Shown here: positions 24,212 through 62,587 of the stretch, piece after piece
Numbering within the stretch: position 1 is the first letter of the stretch
Layout of the letters: every line of letters begins with the position of its first letter
Assembly (NCBI GenBank): GCA_027487215.1
Contig: JAIYDZ010000006.1
Span: forward strand, 135,762-199,761
Length of the DNA stretch: 64,000 bases
Direction of reading: 5' to 3'
From: Pseudomonadota bacterium
GTDB taxonomy: Bacteria > Babelota > Babeliae > Babelales > CAIQNR01
Translations under genes and position numbers: made by a program
Notes under the pieces: model-generated
What the model was told of the DNA's origin: nothing
What the model saw: the letters and a program-made list of their open reading frames with translations, nothing else
Database searches by the model: none

Positions 24212-24571
24212 ATGAAAAAGCTACTTCTTTTTTCTGTTGTAATTTTGACCAGTTCACTTTACAGTCATCCTTTTCGTAGCATTTTAAGTACTTTAAGATA
24301 TGCGCCTTTACAAAAAAGATCTCCTCACTCTCATACACCATACTCTCAGAATGAGCTAACTCAACTGGCAAAAATAAGAGAAGACTATTATAAAAAACTT
24401 GGAGCTCTTGCAGAACAAGAACAAGCACTTGCTCTAAAAAGAATTAATCTTGAAAAAGAATATGCTCAAGCAAAATCAACACTTATAAGCACTTGTCTTT
24501 TAAAAAAAAGCGAACATTCATCTCTTACTACAAAATCGTCCAGTTATAACGCTAGCAGACAACCAGAATAA
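24212..24571 (+). CDS. Hypothetical secreted protein
   Basis: MKKLLLFSVVILTSSLYS signal peptide, a helical K/E/Q-rich body and a Ser-rich tail. Confidence 0.55.
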   Translation: MKKLLLFSVVILTSSLYSHPFRSILSTLRYAPLQKRSPHSHTPYSQNELTQLAKIREDYYKKLGALAEQEQALALKRINLEKEYAQAKSTLISTCLLKKSEHSSLTTKSSSYNASRQPE

Positions 24572-24677
24572 AATAATAAAACACAGAGTAAAAGTAGAAA
24601 AAACTCTCATAAAAGAGTACTGTAGATTTTTATTAAAAAACTGTTTGTATATAAGGATGTTTTAAGTGATTACAAAA

Positions 24678-25403
24678 ATGAAATTACTGCTTTTACTACT
24701 CTGTAGTTTTGTAAGTCATTCTCACGCAGCTCTCTTTAACCCGCTAAAAGTTGCTCTTAGCGCATTACAATCGCAAAAAAATCTTGCTACCAAAGTTTCT
24801 GATCTTTGCGCGTGTATCCAAAAAGAGAAAACAACAAATGATGCAATCATAGAATCTATAAAAACTGGTTTTACAACTATGGCTGCTGATTATAAAAAAA
24901 ATCCTGATGCATGCGCAAAAGAATTAGAAAAAGCACAAGCACAATCACTGCGAGCAATAAAAAGTCAGGAAGATTTCTTAAAATCTTTAATTAAAGAACG
25001 AAATGAACGCGGCGGATGTGCCTTTATTAATGCAAAAACAAGAGTATGGTGCCCTGATCATCCTGAACATCAAGAAAACGAACGAATAAGCAAACTAGAA
25101 ATAAGCACCCCTTGCCTCTGCATAGAAGAAGAAAAAAAAACAACCGCTGAAATGATACAAAGGATAGAAGCCGGATTTGAATCTAGAACTAATGCTTATC
25201 AGATAAACAATCGTTATTGTGATAATAAAGTAGAAATAGAAAAAGCATATAATGCATCACAAAAAGTGATAAAAAGATGCAAAGACTCTTTAAACGAGTT
25301 TATCCTAAGCCACAAACAGCGAGGTGGATGTGCATTACATAATCCAAAAACAAAAATTCAATGCCCCCATAATGCAGCACCTCAAAAAGCAAAAACTAAC
25401 TGA
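24678..25403 (+). CDS. Secreted Cys-rich protein with an internal tandem duplication (two roughly 110-aa repeats)
   Basis: MKLLLLLLCSFVSHSHA signal peptide. The repeats share CxCI.(K/E)EK(T/K)T....I..I..GF, RGGCA and K(T)..(W/Q)CP(D)H. Confidence 0.65.
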   Translation: MKLLLLLLCSFVSHSHAALFNPLKVALSALQSQKNLATKVSDLCACIQKEKTTNDAIIESIKTGFTTMAADYKKNPDACAKELEKAQAQSLRAIKSQEDFLKSLIKERNERGGCAFINAKTRVWCPDHPEHQENERISKLEISTPCLCIEEEKKTTAEMIQRIEAGFESRTNAYQINNRYCDNKVEIEKAYNASQKVIKRCKDSLNEFILSHKQRGGCALHNPKTKIQCPHNAAPQKAKTN

Positions 25404-25468
25404 GACAACACGACTAAATATTCTCAAAAAAAATAATTACTTTCCCCACTATCAAAGGACTGTTTATA

Positions 25469-25945
25469 ATGAAAGCATTACTTACAAAAAAACTTTTAAT
25501 GGTGAGTGCGTTTGTTACTCACAACACCTACGCTGTTCATACTAATCCGCTTACAACACTTGCAGCACGCGCATTAAAACAACGAGCATCTTTTTATAGC
25601 TCAGCAAGAAAAACAGTAAGCTGTCCTTTTTTAGAAAGAGTGGCCCCTTTTATTAAAGAACAAGAAGAACTGTTAAAAGTCAGGCTTGAAACATCACGCT
25701 TAGAGTATGAACTCTTTCGAGCAAACCTTCAGCGAATTAATTTTCAAAGCGGCTACCCTTTTGTAGCAATCGCAGCACAAAATGCCAAAAATCAACAACA
25801 TGCAGCTCTTGAAGATTTTCAAAAAGCTGTAAAAGAAAAAGCAGATGAAATTTGCAAAGAGCTTGCTAAAGAGATGCAAGAATCTCAACACTTGAAATGC
25901 TGCCCTGACGCACAACCAAAATCAGGCCGTTCCGACAATCAATAA
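25469..25945 (+). CDS. Hypothetical secreted protein (same local family)
   Basis: Signal peptide MKALLTKKLLMVSAFVTHNTYA. The mature N-terminus HTNPLTTLAARAL resembles LFNPLKVALSAL of the preceding gene. Confidence 0.6.
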   Translation: MKALLTKKLLMVSAFVTHNTYAVHTNPLTTLAARALKQRASFYSSARKTVSCPFLERVAPFIKEQEELLKVRLETSRLEYELFRANLQRINFQSGYPFVAIAAQNAKNQQHAALEDFQKAVKEKADEICKELAKEMQESQHLKCCPDAQPKSGRSDNQ

Positions 25946-26400: not shown

Positions 26401-26677
26401 AGCTTAACCTAACTTAACCTGCCCACTAAAACTTAGATTGTATCTGCTGATTTCCAGCTTAAAACCTTCTTTTCTATTTTTTCACTTTTGAAATTAAAGT
26501 TAAATATAAACCTCAATTAATATTACCAGTTTGACAATATCAAACAATTGCCTACACTTATACCATATTCATTCATATACTACCAGCAGAGTGTTTACAT
26601 AGCCACACAGAGTAGAAACAGGCATAAAAAAGGCTTGGCAAGCGCTAAAAGTAGGGTAAAAAGAAAAGGGAAGGTCT

Positions 26678-28099
26678 ATGAGCACTATAAAACAAGCAAT
26701 TCCACAAAAAGAAACCGTATCAATACTCAGACAAAGAAACTACTCAGAAGTCGTTGAGTTTTTTGATAAACATTGGTCAGTTAGCCTTGATGGTAAGGGC
26801 AAAGAACGAGTTGCAAAACTTGATAAACTTTTTAATAACCCTTCGCAAAAATTAAGAACTATTTTTATTACCGGGACAAACGGTAAATCTTTAACCGCCC
26901 ACTTTGCATCAAAATTATTAAAGCGCGAAGGCCTCACTGTTGGTACCTTCACTTCGCCACACATTTTGACCTACAACGAACGTTTTGTGTGTGACAATGA
27001 AACTATTGCCAACAGAACTTTTACAGAACTTGCAAATGATGTTATTAATGCCGCAGACACTGCAGGAATTGTTGCCAACACTAAAGAACTCTTAACACAG
27101 TTGGCATTTAACTACTTTGCATCAAACAATGTTGATGTTGCTATTTTTGAAATTGATGGCTCAGGAATAACTGATGCGGCAACGCTCTGTACTCCTGATG
27201 TACTTGCAATCACTCGACTTATTGAAACACAAGCTGATGCTGCTGGAAAATTACCAGAATCACTCTTACAAGAATATGTCAGTCTTGCAAAAAAGCAGAC
27301 CTCTGTTGTCTCTGCTGATCAAAATAAATCGAATCTTAAAACGCTTAATGAACTGGTTGATGCAAGTGGCGCCCAATGGAGCATGCCTATCAGAAAAGTA
27401 GTAGCGCTTGCCTATCCTTTTGAACAACTTCATGGACGTTGTGCAGCGCTTGCAGAACGTGTTGCAACCCTCTTTGTTAATAACGTTGCAAACAAAAATG
27501 CCTTGGTTCTTACAGACAGTCTTCTTGCAAAAGAAAAAGGCAGAAGAGGTCGTCCAACGCTTGAAACTAAAAAGCAGTTAGAACTCAATCCAAAAAAGAC
27601 TATTGAACAATTTTGGAAAGACGTAAGCAGCGAACTTGGCGGAAGATTCCAGATTCTTGATAAAGAAAAACCAACAATTCTGCTTGATAACTCTTGCAAT
27701 AGCGATGCCTTTGAAAACGTGTTACTTGGTATCCGTTTACTTCATTACCAACGCCCTTTAAAAGGTCTTACTCTCATTGTTGCCTGTGAAGAAGGTGCAG
27801 TTGATCCTGAACTCTTTGCAAAACAGATCCGTTATTTCTTTAAAAAGATTTCTGGCCATATTATTCTTTGTCCTCTTGGTAAAACAGCCGGCTGGCAAAA
27901 ACCATCATGGGATATTGAAAAAATTAACAATGCCTTTAAAGCGGTAAAAATAAAAGCTCGCACCGCGACACATTTTAAAGATGCATTTGATACTGCTAAA
28001 AAACTGGTTAACGATCGTCATGGCTTAATTGCTGTGCTTGGATCAACCGGTGTTTTACAAGAATATTGGATCTATAAAGGTATTAAGAAAGTATCCTAA
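26678..28099 (+). CDS. folC: Folylpolyglutamate synthase/dihydrofolate synthase (Mur ligase family)
   Basis: P-loop IFITGTNGKSLTAHF followed by GTFTSPHILTYNERF, the typical FolC N-terminal core. Confidence 0.85.
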   Translation: MSTIKQAIPQKETVSILRQRNYSEVVEFFDKHWSVSLDGKGKERVAKLDKLFNNPSQKLRTIFITGTNGKSLTAHFASKLLKREGLTVGTFTSPHILTYNERFVCDNETIANRTFTELANDVINAADTAGIVANTKELLTQLAFNYFASNNVDVAIFEIDGSGITDAATLCTPDVLAITRLIETQADAAGKLPESLLQEYVSLAKKQTSVVSADQNKSNLKTLNELVDASGAQWSMPIRKVVALAYPFEQLHGRCAALAERVATLFVNNVANKNALVLTDSLLAKEKGRRGRPTLETKKQLELNPKKTIEQFWKDVSSELGGRFQILDKEKPTILLDNSCNSDAFENVLLGIRLLHYQRPLKGLTLIVACEEGAVDPELFAKQIRYFFKKISGHIILCPLGKTAGWQKPSWDIEKINNAFKAVKIKARTATHFKDAFDTAKKLVNDRHGLIAVLGSTGVLQEYWIYKGIKKVS

Positions 28100-28104
28100 T
28101 CATC

Positions 28105-28407
28105 ATGATGATACCAGAACCTGTTTACGCCTTTTTTATGAGCACTGTTGCTGGTATCATGTATGGCTATCTTTTTGCAGCGAGCAAAAGCTTTTTATGG
28201 AGGGAGAACCGTTTTAATGGACAATGGCCATTAAAAACGTTTCTCCTTTCCTCTTTATTAGCTATTTTTAGAATTGGCCTTATCGGGCTTCTTTTTTTCT
28301 TTATATTGCGCACTCAGTTAATGAGTATTATACTGATTTCCATATCATCTTTCCTGGCAGGTTTTTGGGTTGTCATAGTCAGAAAGAAAGCGCATGAACA
28401 CTGTTAA
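28105..28407 (+). CDS. Small membrane protein upstream of atpB (AtpI/AtpZ-like position)
   Basis: 100 aa with 3-4 TM segments. It starts 5 nt after the folC stop and overlaps the atpB start. The assignment rests on position only. Confidence 0.4.
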   Translation: MMIPEPVYAFFMSTVAGIMYGYLFAASKSFLWRENRFNGQWPLKTFLLSSLLAIFRIGLIGLLFFFILRTQLMSIILISISSFLAGFWVVIVRKKAHEHC

Positions 28408-29137
28408 TTTTCATGGAATTAAAGAAAAATGGCACCTTCTTAAATGGATGGGTGTTAATCATCCATTATTAGCATTGACGCCTAACACTTTAATAGCAAC
28501 ATGGATCGTAATAGGATGTCTTTTTGCGACACTTCTTTTTGCAAAAATTTTTTTTCATAAAAAAGATGGTGTTGTTCGATTTATGACACTCTCGACCGTT
28601 TCAGCATTTATGAATTTAAACAGACAAACTCTCGGTTTTTTTGACTACCGCCATTTTAGTTTTATGACCACCCTCTTTCTCTTTATTCTTTATTGTAACT
28701 TGGCAAGTCTTATCCCTTTTGTAGAAGAACCGACGGCAGATCTTAATACGACACTGGCGCTTGGAATTATTTCATTTTTATATGTCAATATTCATGCAAT
28801 AAAACACCACGGCCTTAAAGGATATGTTGCTGAATACTTTCGCCCTTTTGTGGTGATGTTTCCACTTCATGTAGTAGGTAAACTTGCAAGTATTATATCA
28901 ATTTCATTCCGATTATTTGGAAACCTTCTTGGTGGTTCGGTTATTACAAAACTTTTTTTATCAATGGTAGGCACTGCCCCTAGCGCGTGGTATTTTTATT
29001 TTGTTCCTATTTTAGGATCTCTAATAAGTCTTATATTTTTTGGGTTCTTTAGCGTCTTTGAAGGCGCAGTACAAGCATTCATTTTTATGATGTTGTCATT
29101 GACCTACCTTTCTTCAGCACTTTCAGACGAGGGATAA
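28394..29137 (+). CDS. atpB: F-type ATP synthase Fo subunit a
   Basis: Conserved stator arginine motif (ISFRLFGNLLGG) and C-terminal helix motif (FEGAVQAFIFMMLSLTY). Confidence 0.9.
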   Translation: MNTVNFHGIKEKWHLLKWMGVNHPLLALTPNTLIATWIVIGCLFATLLFAKIFFHKKDGVVRFMTLSTVSAFMNLNRQTLGFFDYRHFSFMTTLFLFILYCNLASLIPFVEEPTADLNTTLALGIISFLYVNIHAIKHHGLKGYVAEYFRPFVVMFPLHVVGKLASIISISFRLFGNLLGGSVITKLFLSMVGTAPSAWYFYFVPILGSLISLIFFGFFSVFEGAVQAFIFMMLSLTYLSSALSDEG

Positions 29138-29140
29138 CAA

Positions 29141-30097
29141 ATGGAGTATTCATATTTTTTTTATCACTACATCACTACTGCGCTTGTCGTCTCAGTCAAT
29201 GCAATCAGCGTAGGCCTTGGAGATGGATTTTTAAGTATTTCTGCACTAGAAGCAGCGCAAACTCAGCCCCATGCAAAACCTGAAATTTTCAGAACCCTTC
29301 TTCTTGGGTTAGCTCTTATTGAAACAACGGCGGTTGTAGGGCTTGTAATAGGACTTATGCTTTTTAGTACTAATGTAGAAAACTTTTCAGAATATGCACA
29401 CTATGCGCAGTTGGGCATTGCGTTTGCAATCTGTATTTCAGGTGCCGTTATTGGATTTGTGTCAGCATATCCTGCACGCGAAGCCTGTTTTGCGGTTGCA
29501 CGCCAACCATTTTTCGGAAGAAAAATTCAACTTCTTATGCTTCTTACACTTTCTTTAATGCAAACTCCTATTATTTTTGCCTTCATTGTTGCGCTACTTA
29601 TTAAAGGCCAGCTTGCAGGAGTAAATACTTTTGGAGAAGCAGCACGCCTTATTGGTAGTGGTCTTTGTATTGGTATTGGTAGCATCGGACCAGCGCTAGG
29701 ACTTGGTTCATTTTCAAAAGCAGTCTGTAAAAGTATCGGCATTAACCGACATGCTTATCCCCAACTCTTTCAGTTTACTTTGTTTAGTGAAGCACTTATT
29801 GAATCGCCTCTTATCTTTACCTTTGTTGTCTCAATCATCATTTTACAACTACGCACCCAAGAACCTTTAGATTTTATTCAAGGAATAGGATTTCTAACAG
29901 CTGGACTTTGTATGGGCTTAGGTACGGTAGGACCAGGCATTGGTTCAGGAAATGTTGCATCGGGAGCTGCTACTCAAATTGCACTCACCCCACAGCATTT
30001 TTCATCAATCATGCGTACCAGTCTTTTAGGCCAAGTACTTATTGAGACAAGTGCTATTTACGCATTGATTATCGCGATCGCAATTATTTTCATATAA
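29141..30097 (+). CDS. atpE: Fused four-hairpin Fo subunit c (318 aa, 8 predicted TM helices)
   Basis: Four consecutive c-subunit hairpins with an approximately 80-aa period. The ion-site residues are E61, Q141, E221 and E302 (GAA 29321, CAA 29561, GAA 29801, GAG 30044). Hairpin 2 keeps the ARQP loop. G-rich TM1 motifs are present (GIGSIGPALGLG, GLGTVGPGIGSG). Confidence 0.85.
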   Translation: MEYSYFFYHYITTALVVSVNAISVGLGDGFLSISALEAAQTQPHAKPEIFRTLLLGLALIETTAVVGLVIGLMLFSTNVENFSEYAHYAQLGIAFAICISGAVIGFVSAYPAREACFAVARQPFFGRKIQLLMLLTLSLMQTPIIFAFIVALLIKGQLAGVNTFGEAARLIGSGLCIGIGSIGPALGLGSFSKAVCKSIGINRHAYPQLFQFTLFSEALIESPLIFTFVVSIIILQLRTQEPLDFIQGIGFLTAGLCMGLGTVGPGIGSGNVASGAATQIALTPQHFSSIMRTSLLGQVLIETSAIYALIIAIAIIFI

Positions 30098-30250
30098 GCC
30101 TCCTGCATAACATAGCTACCTCCCCAATAGATCATAACTCTTACCAACCCTTTACTCAGGACAATTGCTGTATTTCTTTATTTTTTAAATTTGAGTATTG
30201 TTAAATCTATAGAAACTGTCGTATCTATTTTCTAGAGTTGTTTTTTAGGA

Positions 30251-30282
30251 ATGGGATCTTTATGAATTTGGAATCTTTATGA
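30251..30282 (+). promoter_or_regulatory. Chain of two mini-uORFs created by a 16/17-nt tandem duplication of the start region
   Basis: ATGGGATCTTTATGA (MGSL*) and ATGAATTTGGAATCTTTATGA (MNLESL*). Each stop overlaps the next ATG as ATGA. The third ATG (30279) opens the 669-aa ORF. Confidence 0.3.
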
Positions 30283-32288
30283 ATTATCGAAGTATGCAAT
30301 TTACAATGTTCATGCTTTTTGCAGGGTCTTTTACATTATGCTTTGGAGCAGGTCCTAATCAAAAAAATGCTTTTAGCAGAGATTTTTTTGAAGGTTTTGA
30401 TGGAAGAGAAGTTTCACTAGAAAAAGCTGAAGCAGAACGCAAAGCTGCTGAAAACCTTAAACATAGAACCGATATTCTCTTAACCCCTCGTCTTACGGAC
30501 AAGCAAATGTTTACAGTGCTCGATACTGCTGAAACAACCTTTCGTGAAACGCATTCCACAGCAGGAAAAAAATCAAAACTTACTCCTATTCAACGCGCTC
30601 ACCATTATTTTTATAAAGATCTTTTTTCTCACATTTTAAAAACATTACTTACTTCACAACTAAGATTGCATAAAGGTTTTTATGCAAAAGATCTTACCGA
30701 TGAAGAACAACGTGGAATATTTGCAGTACCTCTTAATATTGACGACTATTATGAACAGCTGAGTGCACCACAAGCATTTCTTGATAACCCTCAACTTCAT
30801 AGTGCTGCACTTAAAGTAATTCAACTTTCACAACATACCAACAAACTTGTTCAAAAAATCCCTGTAGGTCAGATACGTTCCAATGAGCCTTTTAATAAGT
30901 CACTTACTACTCTTGAAACTCTGGTAGACTCTATAAACCTTAACGATCCCCACGAAAGCTATAAAATATTTGTAAACTGTTTATACTCTTTAACCCTGGG
31001 TACTATTAATGGACGTTATGCAAGAGCATTTGGTTCTCTTAGTGATACTCTACCGGATGAATATGAAAATCTGATAAAAAAAGCACAAGCCCTAAAAAAT
31101 CCTTTATTTGTGCCATTTCTTAACAATCTTTCAGGAATAATGCTGGCGGCCGATCTACAAACAGATCCTCACAATGCTTATCTAGAAAAGCTTTCTGATT
31201 CATCTTACAATTTTAAACCCTGGGTTAAAGAATTCTATACAAAAACACTGGGTCTTTGGAAAAGCAATTTTCCCACAGAAAGCACAATCTATACTTTTGA
31301 TAAAATTGCTTATCATATGCCTGACACTCTTGATATGCCATTCACTCTAAAAGAAGATCCTCAAGCGTCTTCTTTAAAGGTTCTTACCGCTACAGATGAG
31401 TGGCTACCCTCTACTCATCACACTCAAAAAACTGGTAAGGGCCATCACAAAAGTAAATCTAAAAACGAAACCTCAGCGTCATTCACATCGCAAACTAAAG
31501 AATCTCCCGCTATTCCTTCAGAATTAACAAAGAAAAAGAAATCAAAGAAAGATAGAAATGAAAAACAGGAAGATGGTGAATCTGCTCATGAAGTACCAGA
31601 TACAACAGAACCATTAGTTAGTATCGACGATAGCGCTCAAAAAACTCTAGCTAAAGCCGAACCAAAAGAATCTCTTACCCCTGCCTGGTATTATACAAGT
31701 AATATTGGAAAATGGTTTGATCCTAAAAAAGCAGAAAAACTTCTAGTAACCGACGGATACCTCAATCCAAGAGCCGCTACCCCTTTTGAAAAGGAACGAC
31801 GACATATTTTTCTTAACGTTTTACGGATTCATGAAAATAATGAAGAATCTGCAAAACAAGCGATCATTACTGCTCATACCGTTCCCACTCAGGCAGACAA
31901 ACATCTCTTTTTGAAAGTTCCGGAACAATTAAGCCCTTTTACTTACAAACTTGAATCTCTTGTTTTACGCCGCATTCATGAACACCAGTCATTTGGAACA
32001 TTTGAAATTATCTATGAAAAGCCTGACAAAGGACCGCTTATAGTTTTTCACCGACTTGTCAAATCTATGAATCGCGCTCAGTTTGAACAACTTTTTGATA
32101 TTCAAGCGGCTCTTACAGAAGTCAAAGATTCAGAAAGTCTGATTGATGACGAACTCCGCTCTCAAAAACTAGAAGAAGAAACTGCATGGCAACCTGTCCA
32201 AGGAGACTGGATAGAAGATACTACAGATCACTCATTTGTCCTTCTAACCCATCCAAAAACAGACGAAAAAATATATATCATTAAATAA
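30279..32288 (+). CDS. Large hypothetical secreted protein (669 aa) with a central K/S/E-rich disordered linker
   Basis: Long ORF with a hydrophobic N-terminus (MQFTMFMLFAGSFTLCFGA). I recognise no domain. Confidence 0.7.
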   Translation: MNYRSMQFTMFMLFAGSFTLCFGAGPNQKNAFSRDFFEGFDGREVSLEKAEAERKAAENLKHRTDILLTPRLTDKQMFTVLDTAETTFRETHSTAGKKSKLTPIQRAHHYFYKDLFSHILKTLLTSQLRLHKGFYAKDLTDEEQRGIFAVPLNIDDYYEQLSAPQAFLDNPQLHSAALKVIQLSQHTNKLVQKIPVGQIRSNEPFNKSLTTLETLVDSINLNDPHESYKIFVNCLYSLTLGTINGRYARAFGSLSDTLPDEYENLIKKAQALKNPLFVPFLNNLSGIMLAADLQTDPHNAYLEKLSDSSYNFKPWVKEFYTKTLGLWKSNFPTESTIYTFDKIAYHMPDTLDMPFTLKEDPQASSLKVLTATDEWLPSTHHTQKTGKGHHKSKSKNETSASFTSQTKESPAIPSELTKKKKSKKDRNEKQEDGESAHEVPDTTEPLVSIDDSAQKTLAKAEPKESLTPAWYYTSNIGKWFDPKKAEKLLVTDGYLNPRAATPFEKERRHIFLNVLRIHENNEESAKQAIITAHTVPTQADKHLFLKVPEQLSPFTYKLESLVLRRIHEHQSFGTFEIIYEKPDKGPLIVFHRLVKSMNRAQFEQLFDIQAALTEVKDSESLIDDELRSQKLEEETAWQPVQGDWIEDTTDHSFVLLTHPKTDEKIYIIK

Positions 32289-44162: not shown

Positions 44163-44621
44163 ATGAAAAAAATTATTACCAGTTTACTGCTCTTCTTTCT
44201 CTCATTTATTACCGATTCAGCAACTTACTATTTTTTAGCATTTCCTTATGCACACGCTCTCCTTGTTTATACCATTGTTACTTTTTTAAGTACTCACCAC
44301 TGGCTTCCTTTTATACTCGGGATAACAGCTCTTACCTTCCAAGGTTTTTTACTTTACGACGTAGTAGGTATCAACTACCTCTATTTGATACCGCTTTTTA
44401 TGATAATTGGGATACTTAAACAGTTTCTTCACTCACGGCTCCTTGTTGCAACAAGCGGACTGATTACAGCTATCACATTTGAAACATTTTTTTTAGTGCT
44501 ATGTAAAGGCTCTGCCTGGCCCTCTTTTGCCTATACTTTTATCCAAATTGGTGTTAATTTAATACTGTCATATAGGTATTTGAAATGTTTTCCCACAGCA
44601 GGACGAGGCAATCGCTTTTAG
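44163..44621 (+). CDS. Small polytopic membrane protein (MreD-like size and topology, unverified)
   Basis: 152 aa with 4-5 TM segments. The last roughly 32 nt overlap the 5' end of RNase P RNA. Confidence 0.5.
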   Translation: MKKIITSLLLFFLSFITDSATYYFLAFPYAHALLVYTIVTFLSTHHWLPFILGITALTFQGFLLYDVVGINYLYLIPLFMIIGILKQFLHSRLLVATSGLITAITFETFFLVLCKGSAWPSFAYTFIQIGVNLILSYRYLKCFPTAGRGNRF

Positions 44622-44955
44622 GCTTGCTTAAGAGAGGAAAGTCCGGACTCCTAACAAACAAGATGCCGTGAAAAGATGGTTAAATCATTATAGTCACGGA
44701 AAGCGCGAGCTTATGGAAAGTGCCACAGAAAATAACCGCCTGTAAAAGGGTAAGGGTGAAAACGTGCGGTAAGAGCGCACGAGTTGGCTTAGTAATAAGT
44801 TGACGGGGTAAACCCCATTTGGAGCAAGGCAAAATAGGCGTGGACGGTTGTTTGTTCCGGTTTTAACACGCGGGTATGTCGCTCAGATACATGGTTGCCG
44901 CACAGTGCCTTAAAACACTGCGTACAGAATCCGGCTTATTGTCAAGCTGTGGGAA
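44590..44955 (+). ncRNA. rnpB: RNase P RNA, bacterial type A
   Basis: Universal P4 strands GAGGAAAGTCCGG (44633..) and ACAGAATCCGGCTTA (44925..). GGTAAGGGTGAAA, GCGGTAAGAGCGCAC and GGAGCAAGGC are also present. A perfect 10-bp P1 pairs TTCCCACAGC (44590..44599) with GCTGTGGGAA (44946..44955). Confidence 0.9.
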
Positions 44956-55381: not shown

Positions 55382-55548
55382 GCCCTTTTGAAAGCATCTT
55401 ACCTCAGGCTTAAACAAGCTTAAAGCATGACCTGTTGCGGGCTTCCAGCGTTCTGATAAACTTAATTATAGTTAAATAAATGGGAGAGCTAAAAAAGCAA
55501 TTTTAAGCTCAAGTTCTCTTTTGGTGCTTATAAATGGAAGGTATTAGT

Positions 55549-56127
55549 ATGAAGAAATTATTACTGTTTTCGTTACTTCTTAGTTCTGCTGTTATTACAC
55601 CTGTATTTGCTAAAAAAACCACTCCGGTTGAAAAAATACAACAGTATGTTTCACTTACAGACGATTTGATTGAATACACTGCACTTAACCTTGCAGTTGA
55701 ACAGGTTGAACTGGACAAAGAAGGCATTGCTCTTCTTGCAGCGTGTGGACTGGCCCCTTCTATCATTGAAAGCAATAAAGACCTCACACCAGAAGTTCTT
55801 TCAACTATTACTTTAAAATCATATGAACTATTTAATAGTCCATTAGACGCAACAACTTTTGAAACTATTAACTCTGAGCTAGCTGAAGTGGAAGAAATGC
55901 TTACAGATCTTACTACTGTCAAAAATAAAATTGAGACAGGAAAAGCACTTATTACTCAGAACATCAAAACTTCTGACCTTCACTACTTTAAAGATCAACT
56001 TGCAGACATTACAGAACTTGAGCAAGAAGTTCAAAACTTACGCAACTTCTATCTTTTTAGCAAAGCAGCATTAGTTGGTCAGAAAAAAGCGGCTGAAGAA
56101 CTTGTAAAAACATCTGCTCAACAGTAA
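55549..56127 (+). CDS. Secreted helical protein, tandem array member 1
   Basis: MKKLLLFSLLLSSAVITPVFA follows GGAAGG. The ORF track's alternative start is 55534 (MEGISMKK..). Confidence 0.65.
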   Translation: MKKLLLFSLLLSSAVITPVFAKKTTPVEKIQQYVSLTDDLIEYTALNLAVEQVELDKEGIALLAACGLAPSIIESNKDLTPEVLSTITLKSYELFNSPLDATTFETINSELAEVEEMLTDLTTVKNKIETGKALITQNIKTSDLHYFKDQLADITELEQEVQNLRNFYLFSKAALVGQKKAAEELVKTSAQQ

Positions 56128-56161
56128 AAGTCTTTAATCGTTCTTAAATGGAAGGTATGTT

Positions 56162-56809
56162 ATGAAGAAAATTTTTTGGTTCTCAATAGCTGTAATAATT
56201 GTTTCTAGTGTGATTTTTTTTGCTAAATACAGCGAGTCTAATCGTATAGATTCATCAACTTCTGATATGCCTCTCCATCAGCTGCTCTACAAAACTACTG
56301 ATAAGAAAGAACTATCAATTGAAGGACTTAATCAATTTATCAGTTATATAGAACAGTTACTTGCTGATACAAAAATGAATTGTGATAAGAAAAAGTCTTA
56401 TTTAGAAAAATTAAATATTAATACTGATCAATTTGACCAACCATATTATCTTTCTGATAATGTTCTTGCAGAAATTGAAATTAAAGGATTTAAAGAAGTA
56501 TTTGCTATGTACCTATCCTCAAGAGACGTAACTGACTACTCATCTGAATATGCACGTCTTAGTGATTGTCTAAAGTCTATCGAAACAACCACACAAGAAT
56601 TTGTGCTCATTTTTAAAGAAGTTGATTTAGCTTTTAACTTGCTTACTACAGCACATAAACTTAATCCTTGCGATCATTACTCAGAAGCTCTTAATAAAAT
56701 ACAATCTTTTAAAAAAGAATATTATAGTTTCTTGAATTTTCAACTTGCCTATGATGCTTTTTTCAAAGGCGCTATGAGAGCACTTAAAACAGTCTCTAAT
56801 CGTTCATAA
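56162..56809 (+). CDS. Membrane-anchored/secreted helical protein, tandem array member 2
   Basis: MKKIFWFSIAVIIVSSVIFFA start. The C-terminus ..MRALKTVSNRS is shared with member 3. Confidence 0.65.
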   Translation: MKKIFWFSIAVIIVSSVIFFAKYSESNRIDSSTSDMPLHQLLYKTTDKKELSIEGLNQFISYIEQLLADTKMNCDKKKSYLEKLNINTDQFDQPYYLSDNVLAEIEIKGFKEVFAMYLSSRDVTDYSSEYARLSDCLKSIETTTQEFVLIFKEVDLAFNLLTTAHKLNPCDHYSEALNKIQSFKKEYYSFLNFQLAYDAFFKGAMRALKTVSNRS

Positions 56810-56853
56810 ATGGAAGGTATTAGTATGAAGAAGCTATTATTATTTTCGTTACT
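56780..56853 (+). repeat. 74-nt conserved inter-cassette junction, copy 1
   Basis: GCACTTAAAACAGTCTCTAATCGTTCATAAATGGAAGGTATTAGTATGAAGAAGCTATTATTATTTTCGTTACT. It matches 57431..57504 at 69/74 positions. Confidence 0.9.
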
Positions 56854-57460
56854 ACTCAGTTGTACACATTCTCTTGAGATTTGTGCAGATAATAAACAAC
56901 AAGAACCCACTACTCTAGTTGCTCCCTTAGAAACTTTACAGCAATTAGAAACAACTCTTAAAAAGCATGAACAAGAAATAAGAGCAATGGTCGCACCTGA
57001 TCAATTAGAGAAGTATGAACAGCTGCTTCCTAAAATTAATATCACCGCTTTAGAGTTTTTGGTGTGTTGTGGCTTTCCTTGGCTCTCAATTATAAAACAT
57101 GTTTCTGACTCGCTTGCTTTTTTTAAATCTATTAAAAAAGATTCTTTTGAAACAAAGCTTGCCTACTATCAATCACTTACTCCTGAAACTTCTCTTGATA
57201 GTCAACAGGTATCACACATCAATTTACAATTAAAACAACTTCTTGAAAAAATAGATCAAAAGAACAATGAAATTTTTGAAATTCGAAAAACTATAACAAC
57301 AATTGAGCAAGCTTTAACAAACTCAAAAAAATCTACAACAAACGATTACATCGATGCTCTTAATAAAACTTATTATCATCTTAATGATTTAAATAGCATC
57401 AATAGAGCTCTGGTAGAAGGTGAAAAAAAAGCACTTAAGACAGTTTTTAATCGTTCATAA
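56825..57460 (+). CDS. Secreted helical protein, tandem array member 3
   Basis: MKKLLLFSLLLSCTHS start. Alternative start at 56810, immediately after the upstream TAA. The C-terminus is ..KKALKTVFNRS. Confidence 0.65.
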   Translation: MKKLLLFSLLLSCTHSLEICADNKQQEPTTLVAPLETLQQLETTLKKHEQEIRAMVAPDQLEKYEQLLPKINITALEFLVCCGFPWLSIIKHVSDSLAFFKSIKKDSFETKLAYYQSLTPETSLDSQQVSHINLQLKQLLEKIDQKNNEIFEIRKTITTIEQALTNSKKSTTNDYIDALNKTYYHLNDLNSINRALVEGEKKALKTVFNRS

Positions 57461-57504
57461 ATGGAAGGTATTAGTATGAAGAAATTATTATTATTTTCGT
57501 TACT
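57431..57504 (+). repeat. 74-nt conserved inter-cassette junction, copy 2
   Basis: GCACTTAAGACAGTTTTTAATCGTTCATAAATGGAAGGTATTAGTATGAAGAAATTATTATTATTTTCGTTACT. Partial copies lie at 55527..55577 and 56127..56175. Confidence 0.9.
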
Positions 57505-58090
57505 GTTTGTTTCTGGTATATGTGCTAATCCACAATCAGGCGATACTAAACGCACTGAAAAAATGCTTACTCATACTTCAAAAAAAATTGACGAAATACT
57601 TACTGTGCATGGCAAAGTGATAGAAAAACTCAAACCGTTTGATCAAAAACGTTCAATGAGAGAATTTGAACTTATTGAAAAAGAAGTAGCACACATTATT
57701 CGTGGGTTTGAACTTAACTTTTCATTTTTCACAGAGTTTTTTGCAGGCGATACATGCCAAGCATTAAAGGATCACCCTTTTGTATGGTACTACTCAGAGC
57801 TTCAAAAAAGTAATTCTACCTTAACTCGTGTTAATAACATGTGCAAAAAACACATCAAGCTTCTCACTAAAAAACTCAATCACAAAAAACTCGCTGAAGA
57901 AGATAAGCTGCGTTACGAGCGCTGCCTTAAACAAGTTGAAAACACAATGAATGAAGCAACTGATCTAATTATTGCTCTTTCACATGTTGAAAAGTTTATC
58001 AAACTCAGTGATTCATATGTTCGTGAAAAACAACTTTATAGCAACACGACCAAACCGGTATCAAACTTAATTATTGTTTCTCATCGTTAA
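57476..58090 (+). CDS. Secreted helical protein, tandem array member 4
   Basis: MKKLLLFSLLFVSGICA start. Alternative start at 57461. The C-terminus has diverged (..NLIIVSHR). Confidence 0.65.
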   Translation: MKKLLLFSLLFVSGICANPQSGDTKRTEKMLTHTSKKIDEILTVHGKVIEKLKPFDQKRSMREFELIEKEVAHIIRGFELNFSFFTEFFAGDTCQALKDHPFVWYYSELQKSNSTLTRVNNMCKKHIKLLTKKLNHKKLAEEDKLRYERCLKQVENTMNEATDLIIALSHVEKFIKLSDSYVREKQLYSNTTKPVSNLIIVSHR

Positions 58091-58787: not shown

Positions 58788-59627
58788 ATGATACTGAGAT
58801 TTGCTTTTTTGAGTAAAGTACTGTTCATTCTTATTTTCCAGATTCCACTCTGGTCACAAGAACCATCCTTTGTTGTTCTTATCTGTTCATACAATAATGA
58901 ACAATGGGTTGATGCTAACTTAGAATCGGTACGCTCACAAACCTATAAACAGTACCGAATCATCTATATCGATGATTGTTCAACTGACAACACCTTCAAA
59001 AAAGTTTCTGCTTTCTGTGACCAAAATCCTGCCATTCCGGTAACGCTTATTAAAAATAAACATCGTGCATATAAACTTGCAAACTTGTACGATGCAATTC
59101 ATTCATCGTGCAAAAATAATGAAATTGTAGTTGAGCTTGATGGCGATGATTGTTTTTTTAACTCCACTGTTCTTGAAACATTAAAAACGGTTTACACCAC
59201 AACAAATGCATGGATGACCTATGGGGGATTTATCACCTGGCCGCATCAGTACAAACATTTAAAAACTTCCACAATACCTCCAGAGATTGTACTTTCAAAC
59301 AGCTTTCGATACTTTTACAAAACTGGCTATATATTTATGGCATTGCGTAGTTTCTATACGTGGCTTTTTAAAAATATTAAAAAAGAAGATCTTCAAGAAA
59401 ATGGAGAATTTTTTAAATGCGGATCAGATATTGCAACGATGATTCCGATGTTTGAAATGGCAGGCGATCATTTCTATTACCTTACAGAGCAACTCTATTT
59501 ATACAATACCGATACCGGTATTAATGATTTTATAAGACATCCAAAAGGACAAAAGGAGGTTTCTTCCCTGATTGAAAAGAAACCTCCTTATACACGTATT
59601 ACTGAGCAACCACCTTTGGAGTGGTAA
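58788..59627 (+). CDS. Signal-anchored family 2 (GT-A) glycosyltransferase, short paralog
   Basis: VVLICSYNNEQWVDANLESVRSQTYKQYRIIYIDDCSTDNT and a DxD motif (ELDGDDCF). Confidence 0.8.
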   Translation: MILRFAFLSKVLFILIFQIPLWSQEPSFVVLICSYNNEQWVDANLESVRSQTYKQYRIIYIDDCSTDNTFKKVSAFCDQNPAIPVTLIKNKHRAYKLANLYDAIHSSCKNNEIVVELDGDDCFFNSTVLETLKTVYTTTNAWMTYGGFITWPHQYKHLKTSTIPPEIVLSNSFRYFYKTGYIFMALRSFYTWLFKNIKKEDLQENGEFFKCGSDIATMIPMFEMAGDHFYYLTEQLYLYNTDTGINDFIRHPKGQKEVSSLIEKKPPYTRITEQPPLEW

Positions 59628-61077
59628 ATGCAAAACCTATACGAGTTATTGTTGGGTCTTGAATAAAGAGCATGCCTGGCGCAAAAAGATTAGGAAGCAA
59701 ACTCTGGGTAATGAGTGTGTCATCAAGGTACGCAATGCGCTCTCTGATTAACTCTTTGCGTGACAACATGCAGAGTCTTTGATCTCCAGAAATCCATGAT
59801 CGATCTGCGTATGCCAGACGCCACACATAATATCCATCATGAAGATGGACGCACGGTGCTTGTGAAGGATCAGTAATAGCAACTGCTGGGAAACATCCAA
59901 ACGCTTGTGCTTCATCAATAACATTGACCATTTCTTGTGCATGCAACGGTTCAACACAACGCATACCATTATGAATAAAGAACACATGTTCACTACTGTA
60001 CCACCAGTTATGAAGTGATTTTACCAATAGCTGTTTTAAACTTAAAAAGTTTTGGCGGTTCATTAAATGGCCATCTTGATACTGGGCAATTGAAAATCCT
60101 TGTGTATCAACCACATAAATATTACTGATAGCGTCCACATGCTCAATGCATGAATCAATCGTGTAAGAACAGTCATCGGAAAACGAGTCTGCAATCACAA
60201 AAATATCAATTCCTTTAAACTGTTTTTTCGTGCGTGCTGGTGGAACCATTACTGGTTCATACTTCTTTTTATGAAGCAAAATATTACTCGCTACAATTTG
60301 AGGAACTCTATTTACTTTAAAATCATTAATAGGTGACTGCACGTTATGAATATAAATAATCTTATCAATATATTTAAAGTGTGAACCGACCATTTCCATC
60401 ATTGGATAAGAAAACGCAAGGTCACAACTTGCAGGGTAAAACTTACCAAATGAGGCATCGTCATGATCCCATAAAAGATCTTCAAGTTTGATTCGTTTAA
60501 ATACCCATGCATAAAATGTACGCAGTTGACCAGGAGTCCAGTAGGTTTCACGATAAAGACGATCATTTACTATTTTCTGCGGTGTCTGTTTGCAATAACC
60601 ACGCACACCCTTTGGCCAATCCTCAAATGATCCATAGGTAAGCCATACATTCTGATCTTCATACGTTTCATTTAAAAGTGAAAGTACTTTAGTGTCAGGA
60701 AACCAGTCATCTCCATCAAGCTGTACTACAATGTCCCAATCATCACACAAATGAGTCGCAATATAATGGTTAGCAAGAGCACCTTTGCGTTCAGTATTTG
60801 CAATGATATGAACACGATCTTGCATGCCGCATTCACGGACATAATCAGCTACTAATTGAGCCGTTCCATCGTGCGAGCAATCATCAACATAAATTGCATG
60901 CCAATTTGAATATTCTTGGTTAAAAAGACTATCAAGATTATGTTTGTACCACAGTGCGTTATTGTAAGAAGGAATAACCACAGCCATTCGCTTTTCTTCT
61001 TTAACAACAGCTGCACACTCTAAAAAGAATAATCCTGCTGCAACAAACAGAAAGATTTTTTTATAACTGAACTTCAT
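59599..61077 (-). CDS. Signal-anchored GT-A glycosyltransferase with an extra C-terminal domain of about 220 aa
   Basis: VVIPSYNNALWYKHNLDSLFNQEYSNWHAIYVDDCSHDGT and QLDGDDWF. I do not recognise the C-terminal half. Confidence 0.8.
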   Translation of the reverse strand: MKFSYKKIFLFVAAGLFFLECAAVVKEEKRMAVVIPSYNNALWYKHNLDSLFNQEYSNWHAIYVDDCSHDGTAQLVADYVRECGMQDRVHIIANTERKGALANHYIATHLCDDWDIVVQLDGDDWFPDTKVLSLLNETYEDQNVWLTYGSFEDWPKGVRGYCKQTPQKIVNDRLYRETYWTPGQLRTFYAWVFKRIKLEDLLWDHDDASFGKFYPASCDLAFSYPMMEMVGSHFKYIDKIIYIHNVQSPINDFKVNRVPQIVASNILLHKKKYEPVMVPPARTKKQFKGIDIFVIADSFSDDCSYTIDSCIEHVDAISNIYVVDTQGFSIAQYQDGHLMNRQNFLSLKQLLVKSLHNWWYSSEHVFFIHNGMRCVEPLHAQEMVNVIDEAQAFGCFPAVAITDPSQAPCVHLHDGYYVWRLAYADRSWISGDQRLCMLSRKELIRERIAYLDDTLITQSLLPNLFAPGMLFIQDPTITRIGFAFTTPKVVAQ

Positions 61078-62587
61078 CTACTTCTCCAGACATAAGGGGA
61101 GCCATTACATATAATTCATCAGCCGGCGCACTACTTTGAACTGCAGCAAGAAACGTGTGGAAATTGGGATGGAAAATCTCAAGGTTTTCTACCATTTTTA
61201 TACACTCTTCCTTTTTTAAAAGAAGACCGCTGCAATCAGTAATCTGCTCAAAAACATCATGATACAACCATGAGTTAAAAAGATACGCATTATAAGAAGC
61301 GCCCCATGGAGCAACATCATATCCTTTTTGCTCAAGAATCTCTTTATTACCTTTTCCAAATACAACACCTGTAGAACCAGTTGCTTCAACCGTTTTTAAA
61401 AGCTCACCAAAATTAAGATGATCTGCTTCTAGTAAATGCTGTGTTGAAAGTAATACGTACTGACCTCGACATTTTTGCAATGACTTTAAAAGTTTGTCTT
61501 TAAAGTTCACGCGATGCGTATACACCTGATCAAGAGAATAACCAATATCAAGTGTTGAAAAATGATTACAATAGGTACGCATTGTTCTGTTTTTACGAGG
61601 ATCTTCATTGCCTACTTTTATCACAGAATCAAAAAACACTCCTTCAGATTCACGCTTTTTAAAAAATCGTGCAACATCGTGCTCTTCTTCCATGAAAATT
61701 ACATAAGAAAGCAATTGTTCTTTATCGTGTTGAGTAAATGAAGTTTCTTTATATTGAGGATAGGGCTTTCTATTGCGAGTAATTAAATCGTAATAAATTT
61801 GAAATTCGAATTTTGATTTAAAAAGATTAATCGCATTATCGGTGTTATAGACATATAAAATATCATGAATGTATTTATAACGATCACGAGCCATTTCAAA
61901 AAGCGGCAACATAAACGCAACGTCTGTTGCCATCATCAAAAACTTACCGTTGTGCATAAGGTCTTGTGCTTTAATTTTCTTAAAAAGTCCTGCATAAAAA
62001 GTACGGGGATGCACACCACGAAAACCAAGCTGTCTAAAACCATATTGTGCTAGCTCTTCTTTGGTGTAATCGCGATATCCTATTTTTTGACCTGTTGAAC
62101 TGCGAGACGCATTTCCCACTGAAAGCAATACACCTTCATCGGTATACAAATCATTAAGATATGAAAGAACTTCATTATGACTCAACCAGTCATCCCCATC
62201 CAGTAGAAGAATAATGGCATTATCGTTACATGCATGAATAGCTTTATAACGATTGAAAAGTTGACCATAACGTACTTTGTTTTTAATCAGTAAACATTTA
62301 TGTTCTAAATTTCGCTCTTGTATATAAAGCTCAACCAGATCACCCGTTCCATCTGGAGAACAATCGTCAAGGTAAATCACGCGATAGTTAGAATAGTTTT
62401 GAGAAAATACTGAATCAAGATTTTTCTTATACCAGTCTTTATTATTATAAGAAGGTATAACCACCACAATCTCCTTTTCAGGAAATCTCTGGGATTCAGA
62501 CTCTCGGCAAATAGTAACAGAATTTAAAAATAAACTGAGCACTAAACAGCTCATTAAAAAGTTCACCTTAAAACGTTTTACTGACAT
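61061..62587 (-). CDS. Signal-anchored GT-A glycosyltransferase with an extra C-terminal domain of about 220 aa
   Basis: VVIPSYNNKDWYKKNLDSVFSQNYSNYRVIYLDDCSPDGT and LLDGDDWL. It overlaps the downstream paralog by 17 nt. Confidence 0.8.
   Translation of the reverse strand: MSVKRFKVNFLMSCLVLSLFLNSVTICRESESQRFPEKEIVVVIPSYNNKDWYKKNLDSVFSQNYSNYRVIYLDDCSPDGTGDLVELYIQERNLEHKCLLIKNKVRYGQLFNRYKAIHACNDNAIILLLDGDDWLSHNEVLSYLNDLYTDEGVLLSVGNASRSSTGQKIGYRDYTKEELAQYGFRQLGFRGVHPRTFYAGLFKKIKAQDLMHNGKFLMMATDVAFMLPLFEMARDRYKYIHDILYVYNTDNAINLFKSKFEFQIYYDLITRNRKPYPQYKETSFTQHDKEQLLSYVIFMEEEHDVARFFKKRESEGVFFDSVIKVGNEDPRKNRTMRTYCNHFSTLDIGYSLDQVYTHRVNFKDKLLKSLQKCRGQYVLLSTQHLLEADHLNFGELLKTVEATGSTGVVFGKGNKEILEQKGYDVAPWGASYNAYLFNSWLYHDVFEQITDCSGLLLKKEECIKMVENLEIFHPNFHTFLAAVQSSAPADELYVMAPLMSGEVDEVQL

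Follow-up and report, generated by a model that had tools for sequence, protein, structure and literature searches.

The window analyzed here is a stretch of 64,000 nucleotides from contig JAIYDZ010000006.1 (assembly GCA_027487215.1, positions 135,762 to 199,761), derived from a bacterium of the lineage Babelota, here called Dependentiae. It contains a gene, atpE4 (29141..30097, forward strand), for an ATP synthase c subunit of 318 residues, referred to as c4, in which four F-type c hairpins with eight transmembrane helices are joined in one open reading frame (ORF) without an internal stop and one of the four ion-binding carboxylates is replaced by glutamine. With a probability of roughly 0.75, the locus is interpreted as the membrane rotor and stator part of the single F1Fo enzyme of Dependentiae, whose ring would be composed of fused c4 subunits with three of every four ion sites active. 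An earlier first-pass annotation, made from the nucleotide sequence alone, had offered two interpretations, namely a ring with three of four sites or a stand-alone Fo module lacking F1. The invariant pattern of site residues, the conservation of the glutamine hairpin, the R-Q-P loop and the arginine of subunit a favor the first of these, and the location of the F1 genes in related genomes speaks against the second.

Sequence and predicted structure of the c4 subunit

The c4 protein matches PF00137 in four stretches (E=4e-34), and each hairpin scored alone exceeds the gathering cut-off of 24 bits (39.0, 27.0, 36.8 and 52.4 bits for hairpins 1 to 4). The whole protein also passes NF009998, with 122.5 bits against a threshold of 116. 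Hairpin 1 (29141..29386, forward strand, as are all four) carries the active-site residue E61 (GAA, 29321-29323) in the motif IETT together with a loop of the form xQP. Hairpin 2 (29387..29626) has lost the ion site and carries Q141 (CAA, 29561-29563) in the motif MQTP, with the cytoplasmic loop ARQPF retained. Hairpin 3 (29627..29869) has its active site at E221 (GAA, 29801-29803) in the motif IESP, for which the family form is E-S/T-P..F, and hairpin 4 (29870..30094), the best-scoring of the four against Pfam, has E302 (GAG, 30044-30046) in the motif ETS..Y. The helix-2 carboxylate is therefore present in hairpins 1, 3 and 4 and is replaced by Q141 in hairpin 2. The R-Q-P loop is found as ARQPF in hairpin 2 and as QP in hairpin 1, and it has diverged to N-R and x-P in hairpins 3 and 4. 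A cytoplasmic loop of the A-R-Q-P-F type is the canonical F-type motif that contacts the central stalk formed by gamma and epsilon.

The single four-hairpin protein, the residues E61, Q141, E221 and E302 with codons beginning at 29321, 29561, 29801 and 30044, the motifs IETT, MQTP, IESP and IETS..Y and the ARQP loop of hairpin 2 had all been described in the first-pass annotation, and direct reading of the sequence reproduces each of them. The placement of Q141 in the ion-site column likewise holds. In an alignment with single-hairpin reference sequences, Q141 falls opposite Escherichia coli D61, Ilyobacter tartaricus E65 and Bacillus PS3 E56, and a phmmer search of the Protein Data Bank (PDB) aligned the ion-site region of c4 with the E and Q hairpins of the Acetobacterium woodii c1 subunit.

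Conservation of these positions was evaluated in an alignment of 122 c4 sequences, in which the site pattern E/Q/E/(E or D) is fixed across the phylum. In hairpin 1, the E61 column contains E in 119 sequences and D in three, T62 and P43 are invariant and Q42 is present in 121. Q141 occurs in every sequence, T142 and P143 are nearly invariant, and the loop residues R121, Q122, P123 and F124 show little or no variation. E221 is likewise found in all 122 sequences, accompanied by P223 in 121 and an invariant loop residue N202. The E302 column is divided between E (84) and D (38), with Y307 in 121 sequences. The mean conservation of hairpin 2 (0.68) is no lower than that of the other hairpins, and the alignment thus indicates a Q hairpin that is fully constrained and not decaying.

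A Na+-binding motif consists of Q or E in helix 1 together with E and S/T in helix 2 (PMC7793690). In c4, S or T follows the site residue in all four hairpins, and the helix-1 position varies among them. In hairpin 1 it corresponds to position 28, which is D in the window and E, Q or D in 66, 48 and 4 members of the family, respectively; in hairpin 3 it is Leu; and in hairpin 4 the equivalent of ‘Q32’ is the invariant S269, combined with E-T-S..Y. Among the four hairpins, the last comes closest to c subunits of the Na+ type.

An AlphaFold2 model of c4 built with the family alignment reaches a predicted local distance difference test score (pLDDT) of 95.8 and a predicted template modeling score of 0.92. 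It contains long helices with short, single-residue breaks, and the predicted helices are consistent with eight transmembrane segments. A Foldseek search with this model returns A. woodii c1 (4bem_J) as the best match, followed by NtpK of Enterococcus hirae and eukaryotic Vo proteolipids, with each match covering half of the c4 model at a template modeling score of ~0.8 relative to the target. No solved structure with a four-hairpin c subunit is present among the PDB matches. At the DNA level, the gene contains no repeat of ~240 bp, and pairwise identity among the hairpins is only 15-27%, which excludes a recent tandem duplication and indicates that the quadruplication is ancient.

Two other enzyme classes were considered and rejected. 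For the N-type ATPase, the specific models of subunits a and c stay below their thresholds, with 108.5 bits for TIGR03322 (cut-off 130.85) and 94 bits for TIGR03306 (cut-off 302), and the gene order atpDCQRBEFAG differs from that of the locus. For the V-type proteolipids, the models of the K subunit give 32-42 bits against cut-offs of 101-211, and no V1 genes are present in the window.

Distribution of c4 in Dependentiae

Databases hold more than 450 homologues of c4, with lengths of ~315-323 residues and identities of 46-92%, several of which are named Candidatus Dependentiae. In a scan of a GTDB-based collection with one genome per species, 100 genomes contain a c4 homologue. Locus counts given here refer to the best 80 of these 100, for which 10 kb was inspected on each side (loci of ~20 kb). 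Most of the 80 carry titles that include TM6, Dependentiae, Babeliales, Babelota or Vermiphilus, and the remaining titles are uninformative or probably wrong. The latter include metagenome-assembled genomes with a c4 of the Dependentiae type and the corresponding synteny that are titled ‘Alteromonas naphthalenivorans’ or ‘uncultured Pseudomonadota’ (L012, JBLICC010000005.1; L009; L015; L016; and others), titles that are probably taxonomic mislabels. The order of a folC-like gene, a gap of ~90 codons, atpB and c4 is kept in 75-79 of the 80 species genomes. Public databases list these c4 genes simply as “ATP synthase F0 subunit C”.

Because the same single ORF is found in more than 450 proteins and 100 species genomes, the fusion is not an assembly artefact. 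Apart from the a priori oddity of such a fusion, nothing suggests that four separate c genes were mis-joined or that the gene is a pseudogene with a dead site. The uninterrupted ORF recurs in hundreds of independent assemblies, among them closed chromosomes and the cultured Babela, and the conserved linker lengths, 21 invariant and ~60 nearly invariant columns and confident structural model are those of a maintained protein. Conservation thus refutes the artefact, and the probability left for a mis-joined or decaying gene is negligible.

Subunit a and the location of the F1 genes

Subunit a is encoded by atpB (28394..29137, forward strand; 247 residues), the stop codon of which is separated from the start of c4 by 3 nt. 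The protein matches PF00119 (E=8e-39) and exceeds the TIGR01131 cut-off (105.5 against 102.6 bits). Its arginine R173 is located within the sequence SISFRLFGN, and all 76 aligned orthologues share R173, L174, G176 and N177, so the earlier assignment of the gene as a bona fide subunit a is well founded.

Only an atpI-like gene, atpB and atpE lie together at this locus, in place of the canonical contiguous operon atpIBEFHAGDC. Essentially all ORFs of at least 110 residues in the 64 kb were scanned against Pfam without revealing a further atp gene, and a lax rescan (E<=1) of ten unannotated, mostly small ORFs of the window gave no atp match. A search for the F1 P-loop motif in the window returned only ABC transporters and thymidylate kinase, and tblastn of the window with E. 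coli AtpD and Babela AtpG gave no match. These searches support the statement in the first-pass annotation that atpF, atpH, atpA, atpG, atpD and atpC are absent from the 64 kb. The same pattern is found in related genomes, as no match to AtpD or AtpG lies within 10 kb of c4 in the 80 species genomes.

It had been proposed as an alternative that subunit a and c4 form a stand-alone module, which without F1 could conduct ions or be part of a different machine; it might then act as a leak or drive that machine as its motor. Such a module is compatible with the lack of any F1, b or delta gene within the 64 kb here or within 10 kb in the relatives, and with the fact that the tight, phylum-wide linkage of the a-c4 pair is to the folC-like gene and not to other atp genes. 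The proposal is nevertheless not supported by the gene content of related genomes. In Babela massiliensis, AtpA, AtpD, AtpG, AtpH, AtpC, AtpF and AtpB are each encoded by one gene, and the TM6SC1 assembly likewise contains single genes for all of them but AtpF (PMC4378268, supplementary tables for Babela). The Babela c gene encodes 320 residues in four hairpins with the sites E/Q/E/D and adjoins the only atpB gene and an ORF of 84 residues; the published annotation table assigns it eight transmembrane helices without comment (PMC4378268). The Babela atpG gene stands alone, ~190 kb from c4.

A search with Babela AtpG returned 665 homologues, some of which are named Dependentiae. In four long contigs that were viewed, atpG is solitary, with TsaE and YacP directly beside it in three and ~7 kb away in the fourth. 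Two genomes allow the distance between the genes, 0.7-1 Mb, to be read directly: on contig_7006 (1,194,016 bp; L086) c4 lies at ~240 kb and atpG at ~965 kb, and on the closed chromosome OY969428.1 (1,733,188 bp; L067) the two are located at ~646 kb and ~1.70 Mb, respectively. The atp genes of Dependentiae are thus dispersed around the chromosome, and since this dispersal is the gene order of the whole phylum, missing F1 neighbors are no proof of a stand-alone Fo.

Further points disfavor the stand-alone module. The only subunit a of Babela adjoins c4, so its F1 would be left without a stator if the a-c4 pair served another purpose. The R-Q-P loop that contacts F1 is invariant, and an AtpI-like gene precedes atpB as it does in canonical operons. 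Given a full F1, b and delta set in Babela and atpG on the same chromosomes as c4, the stand-alone module is considered very improbable.

The surroundings of atpG were also recorded in the four contigs (L005, L006, L090 and L092; 10001-10840 in each). The gene is mostly divergent from the YacP(NYN)-TsaE pair, arrays of ankyrin-repeat genes often follow it in Dependentiae, and a gene resembling IS605 OrfB/TnpB lies just upstream in L090.

Relationship to other fused c subunits

The closest characterized counterpart of c4 is the A. woodii c1 subunit (PDB 4BEM, chain J), which is its best match in the PDB by sequence (E=2e-18) as well as by structure. Both are F-type proteins with more than one hairpin per chain and one carboxylate changed to Q, in each case in the second hairpin (AVAQTTGIY in c1 and SLMQTPIIF in c4), and c1 lowers the number of sites per ring as is proposed for c4. 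The two differ in that c1 has two hairpins and one site, occurs once per ring alongside nine single-hairpin c2/3 subunits and is encoded in a complete operon (PMC9171764), whereas c4 has four hairpins and three sites, no single-hairpin c gene nearby and a broken-up operon.

The proteolipids of V/A-type enzymes (E. hirae NtpK; eukaryotic Vo c, c' and c''; archaeal c subunits with 2, 3 and 13 hairpins) share with c4 the multiplication of hairpins and the reduced number of carboxylates, a reduction that is associated with pump function (PMC9171764). They belong to another enzyme class with V1 or A1 heads and a different subunit a, and they have usually lost one carboxylate in two, as opposed to one in four in c4. 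Engineered fusions of c subunits (c2 to c10 in Bacillus PS3; c2 to c4 in E. coli) show that a working F-type ring can be built from covalently linked hairpins (PMC8809890, citing Mitome 2004). In contrast to c4, these constructs use artificial linkers and keep all sites.

A broad search of 1.84 billion cluster representatives returned 163 clusters at E<1e-30, in addition to other multi-hairpin c proteins that align with c4 repeat by repeat. F-like proteins with three, four and five hairpins are among the results, with site patterns such as E/Q/Q/E, E/Q/Q/Q and E/Q/Q/Q/Q. A homology search started from one of these multi-hairpin proteins returned more than 2,200 proteins with lengths of ~324, 404 or 485 residues, corresponding to four, five or six hairpins, and those with names belong to Desulfobacterales/Thermodesulfobacteriota (for example P0360 with 324 residues, P0285 with 406 residues and forms of 481-487 residues; also P0389-P0507). 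Most of the Desulfobacterales proteins keep only the first carboxylate, and some keep the last as well. The premise of the first-pass annotation that a single hairpin is the norm for bacterial F-type c subunits is true as a general statement but has to accommodate the abundance of forms with four, five and six hairpins in Desulfobacterales.

The search of cluster representatives also produced two giant c subunits with E at every site. P0331 (968 residues, ~12 hairpins) is rich in tryptophan and has a repeated helix 1 of the form ‘LWVWIWEW’, and P0385 (1139 residues, ~14 hairpins) resembles A-type c subunits.

Two Desulfobacterales-type loci were viewed (L087:1287-2604 and L089:6688-15324), and in both the multi-hairpin c gene lies in an F-type atp cluster. 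The longer contig contains atpZ, an ORF of 120 residues in the position of atpI with no Pfam match, atpB, the multi-hairpin c gene, a single-hairpin c gene and the genes for b', b, delta, alpha, gamma, beta and epsilon. The shorter contig contains atpI, atpB, both c genes, b' and b before it ends. These loci have the A. woodii layout with a longer fusion.

Alignment of a Desulfobacterales-type c subunit to c4 by BLASTP is collinear, with 32% identity over 299 residues and three gaps, placing Q141 opposite Q and E in hairpins 1 and 4. The inner motif (E/Q)-T-P..F and the motif (E/Q)-S/T-x..Y of the last hairpin are shared by both, and subunit a of the window is 37% identical to that of a complete Desulfobacterales-type atp operon. 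In a hairpin-by-hairpin identity matrix the diagonal signal is weak, and the collinear alignment over the full length is the better evidence. The c4 subunit differs from the Desulfobacterales fusions by keeping three of four sites instead of one or two, by having no adjacent single-hairpin c gene and by belonging to a dispersed operon. From these comparisons, c4 of Dependentiae is best seen as a putative divergent branch of a larger and apparently undescribed group of fused F-type c subunits. No description of a four-hairpin F-type c subunit was found in the full-text literature searched, although an earlier mention in subscription papers is possible, and none was found for the Desulfobacterales multi-hairpin proteins in the searchable literature. 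Papers on Dependentiae mention only “an ATP synthase” that possibly runs in reverse (PMC4776705; PMC6561590).

The Desulfobacterales operons raise the alternative of a hybrid rotor, in which the ring would combine c4 with a conventional single-hairpin c subunit from another genomic locus and its size would not have to be a multiple of four. In the operons examined, the multi-hairpin c gene always precedes a single-hairpin one, and A. woodii provides a precedent with nine c2/3 subunits and one c1 per ring. The published Babela table of Clusters of Orthologous Groups (COG) moreover counts two entries for COG0636 (PMC4378268), a count that also tells against a ring of c4 alone. One COG0636 gene is present in the part of the Babela annotation table that was covered, and the count of two could represent a second c gene or double-counted domains. 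Opposed to a hybrid is the result that no second c-like gene (E<1e-5) occurs in the 64-kb window, within 10 kb in at least 80 Dependentiae loci or near atpG in the four contigs viewed. In addition, c4 retains three of its four sites, while the proteins of the hybrid type mostly retain one or two, and this fits c4 as the main or sole component of the ring. A hybrid rotor is on balance unlikely.

Proposed rotor

In the preferred interpretation of c4 as the building block of the ring, n copies of c4, most plausibly three and alternatively two or four, would assemble into a ring with 4n hairpins, of which 3n carry an ion site. These values of n follow because published F-type rings contain 8 to 17 hairpins (PMC9171764) and a ring made only of c4 has 4n. 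The ring would turn against R173 of subunit a, with its conserved cytoplasmic loops providing the coupling to the F1 stalk of gamma and epsilon. One hairpin in four would carry no ion past the stator, and the enzyme would translocate n ions per ATP instead of 4n/3, which for a (c4)3 ring means three instead of four. For n of 2, 3 and 4, the ratio would be 2, 3 and 4 ions per ATP, respectively, whereas a ring without lost sites would give 2.7, 4 and 5.3.

Such a ratio can be related to the biology of the phylum. Dependentiae have no electron transport chain, possess ATP/ADP translocases and have been proposed to use ATP synthase in reverse (PMC4776705; PMC6561590). With no respiratory chain and with ATP imported from the host, the enzyme would presumably work chiefly as a pump powered by ATP, for which fewer ions per ATP would allow a larger membrane potential per ATP. 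The argument from low ion ratios is established for V-type proteolipids and A. woodii c1 (PMC9171764).

Besides the COG0636 count in Babela, several points weigh against this interpretation. The F1 of the genome to which the window belongs is deduced from relatives, and the nearest reference genome has a c4 of only 58% identity. The c4 protein is apparently, and not certainly, the only c subunit. The ring stoichiometry and the running direction are predictions, and the coupling ion may be H+ or Na+. Finally, in an engineered Bacillus PS3 ring of fused c10, a single E56Q substitution abolished ATP synthesis (PMC8809890), which implies that one Q in four would need adaptations in the Dependentiae enzyme. 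In nature, one Q among eleven hairpins is nevertheless tolerated by A. woodii, and V-type rings accommodate an inactive hairpin in every pair.

A more specific and tentative version of the c4 ring, less likely than not as a whole, is a symmetry-matched pump. Three c4 subunits would provide 12 hairpins in exact three-fold symmetry with nine carboxylates, such that one ATP would correspond to one polypeptide and three ions. In this version c4 would be the sole c subunit, the fusion would represent an independent, phylum-wide first step from an F-type toward a V-type enzyme, and the interface between a and c would be adapted to the passage of an uncharged Q hairpin by the stator arginine, an event that kills synthesis in engineered rings.

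The number of ion sites in a rotor sets the number of ions per ATP, and the textbook route from a synthase to a V-type pump is duplication of the c hairpin followed by loss of a carboxylate. Hairpin multiplication with carboxylate loss is well known as a principle. In Dependentiae, a whole phylum living on imported host ATP appears to have an F-type enzyme frozen at an intermediate stage, with a fourfold fusion, one site in four lost and c4 apparently serving as the only rotor subunit. Babela and Vermiphilus can be grown in amoebae, which makes the stoichiometry, the ion specificity, the thresholds of pumping and synthesis and the passage of Q past the stator arginine measurable. The adjustment of rotor gearing by hairpin fusion may be far wider in bacteria than the single A. 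woodii example, and the common fusions of the sulfate-reducing Desulfobacterales would affect calculations of ATP yield in energy-limited anaerobes.

Neighboring genes and other features of the window

A small ORF of 100 residues (28105..28407, forward strand) with three hydrophobic segments lies directly upstream of atpB and overlaps its start by 14 nt. Counterparts of ~85-110 residues occupy the same position in 72 related loci, and G17 and R56 are invariant in the family. When 36 family members were scanned, the commonest Pfam match was ATP-synt_I (PF03899), found for six members with a best E of 0.0028, and TIGR03165 of the AtpR type faintly matched two (E=0.017). The small ORF is thus a candidate AtpI-like c-ring assembly factor, for which the match is weak and the position fits, and the locus resembles the beginning (atpIBE) of a canonical atp operon. 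AtpI proteins are helpers of c-ring assembly, and the A. woodii ATPase reportedly needs its native AtpI. An assignment of the small ORF as a b subunit was rejected on account of the missing ATP-synt_B match, the three hydrophobic segments and the weak resemblance to AtpI.

The folC-like gene of the Mur ligase family (26678..28099, forward strand) stops 5 nt short of the small ORF and probably shares a transcript with the atp genes. It scores 135 bits with TIGR01499, below the cut-off of 162.65, and has weak matches to Mur_ligase_M and Mur_ligase_C. In 75 of the 80 Dependentiae loci a folC-like homologue directly precedes atpB-c4, a linkage that is fixed without an apparent functional reason. 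The best match to a sigma-70-like promoter, TTGACA-16-TACACT (26531..26558, forward strand), lies upstream of the folC-like gene and is to be taken as a lead only, since promoter-like sites are not above the level in shuffled sequences (8 seen and 13 expected). A terminator scan found no convincing candidate 3' of c4.

The wider gene order of the window consists of GltX, an amino-acid permease, RbfA, a prepilin peptidase, the folC-like gene, the small ORF, atpB and c4, followed by a PALP enzyme, a protein of the metallo-beta-lactamase fold, thymidylate kinase and HolB. The same arrangement recurs in Dependentiae contigs of 1.09 and 1.24 Mb. Three consecutive small ORFs (24212-25945; 119, 245 and 158 residues) that separate the prepilin peptidase from the folC-like gene have N-termini resembling signal peptides and no family match, and the ORF of 245 residues is internally duplicated, with Cys motifs in pairs. 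At this position, Sua5 and pseudopilin genes are found in relatives. Downstream of c4, an ORF of 669 residues (30279-32288) also begins with a signal-peptide-like segment and has no Pfam or NCBIfam match and no tblastn match in the 80 related loci, which carry a GT4 glycosyltransferase or other genes at this place. A 17-bp tandem repeat (30244-30285) overlaps the start of this ORF.

The remaining features of the window are unconnected to the atp genes. A full-length class A RNase P RNA is located at 44595-44954 on the forward strand (Rfam RF00010, 221 bits), and its 5'-terminal 27 nt also lie within an ORF at 44163-44621. The 64 kb contain no tRNA gene. Four head-to-tail ORFs of 197-216 residues at 55534-58090 have no Pfam match, coincide with the lowest G and C content of the window (0.317) and may form a lineage-specific array of paralogues. 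Three adjacent genes for family-2 glycosyltransferases (58788-62587; 279, 492 and 508 residues), the last two on the reverse strand, adjoin a SLOG/LOG-like gene and an AMMECR1-Memo fusion (62699-63898).

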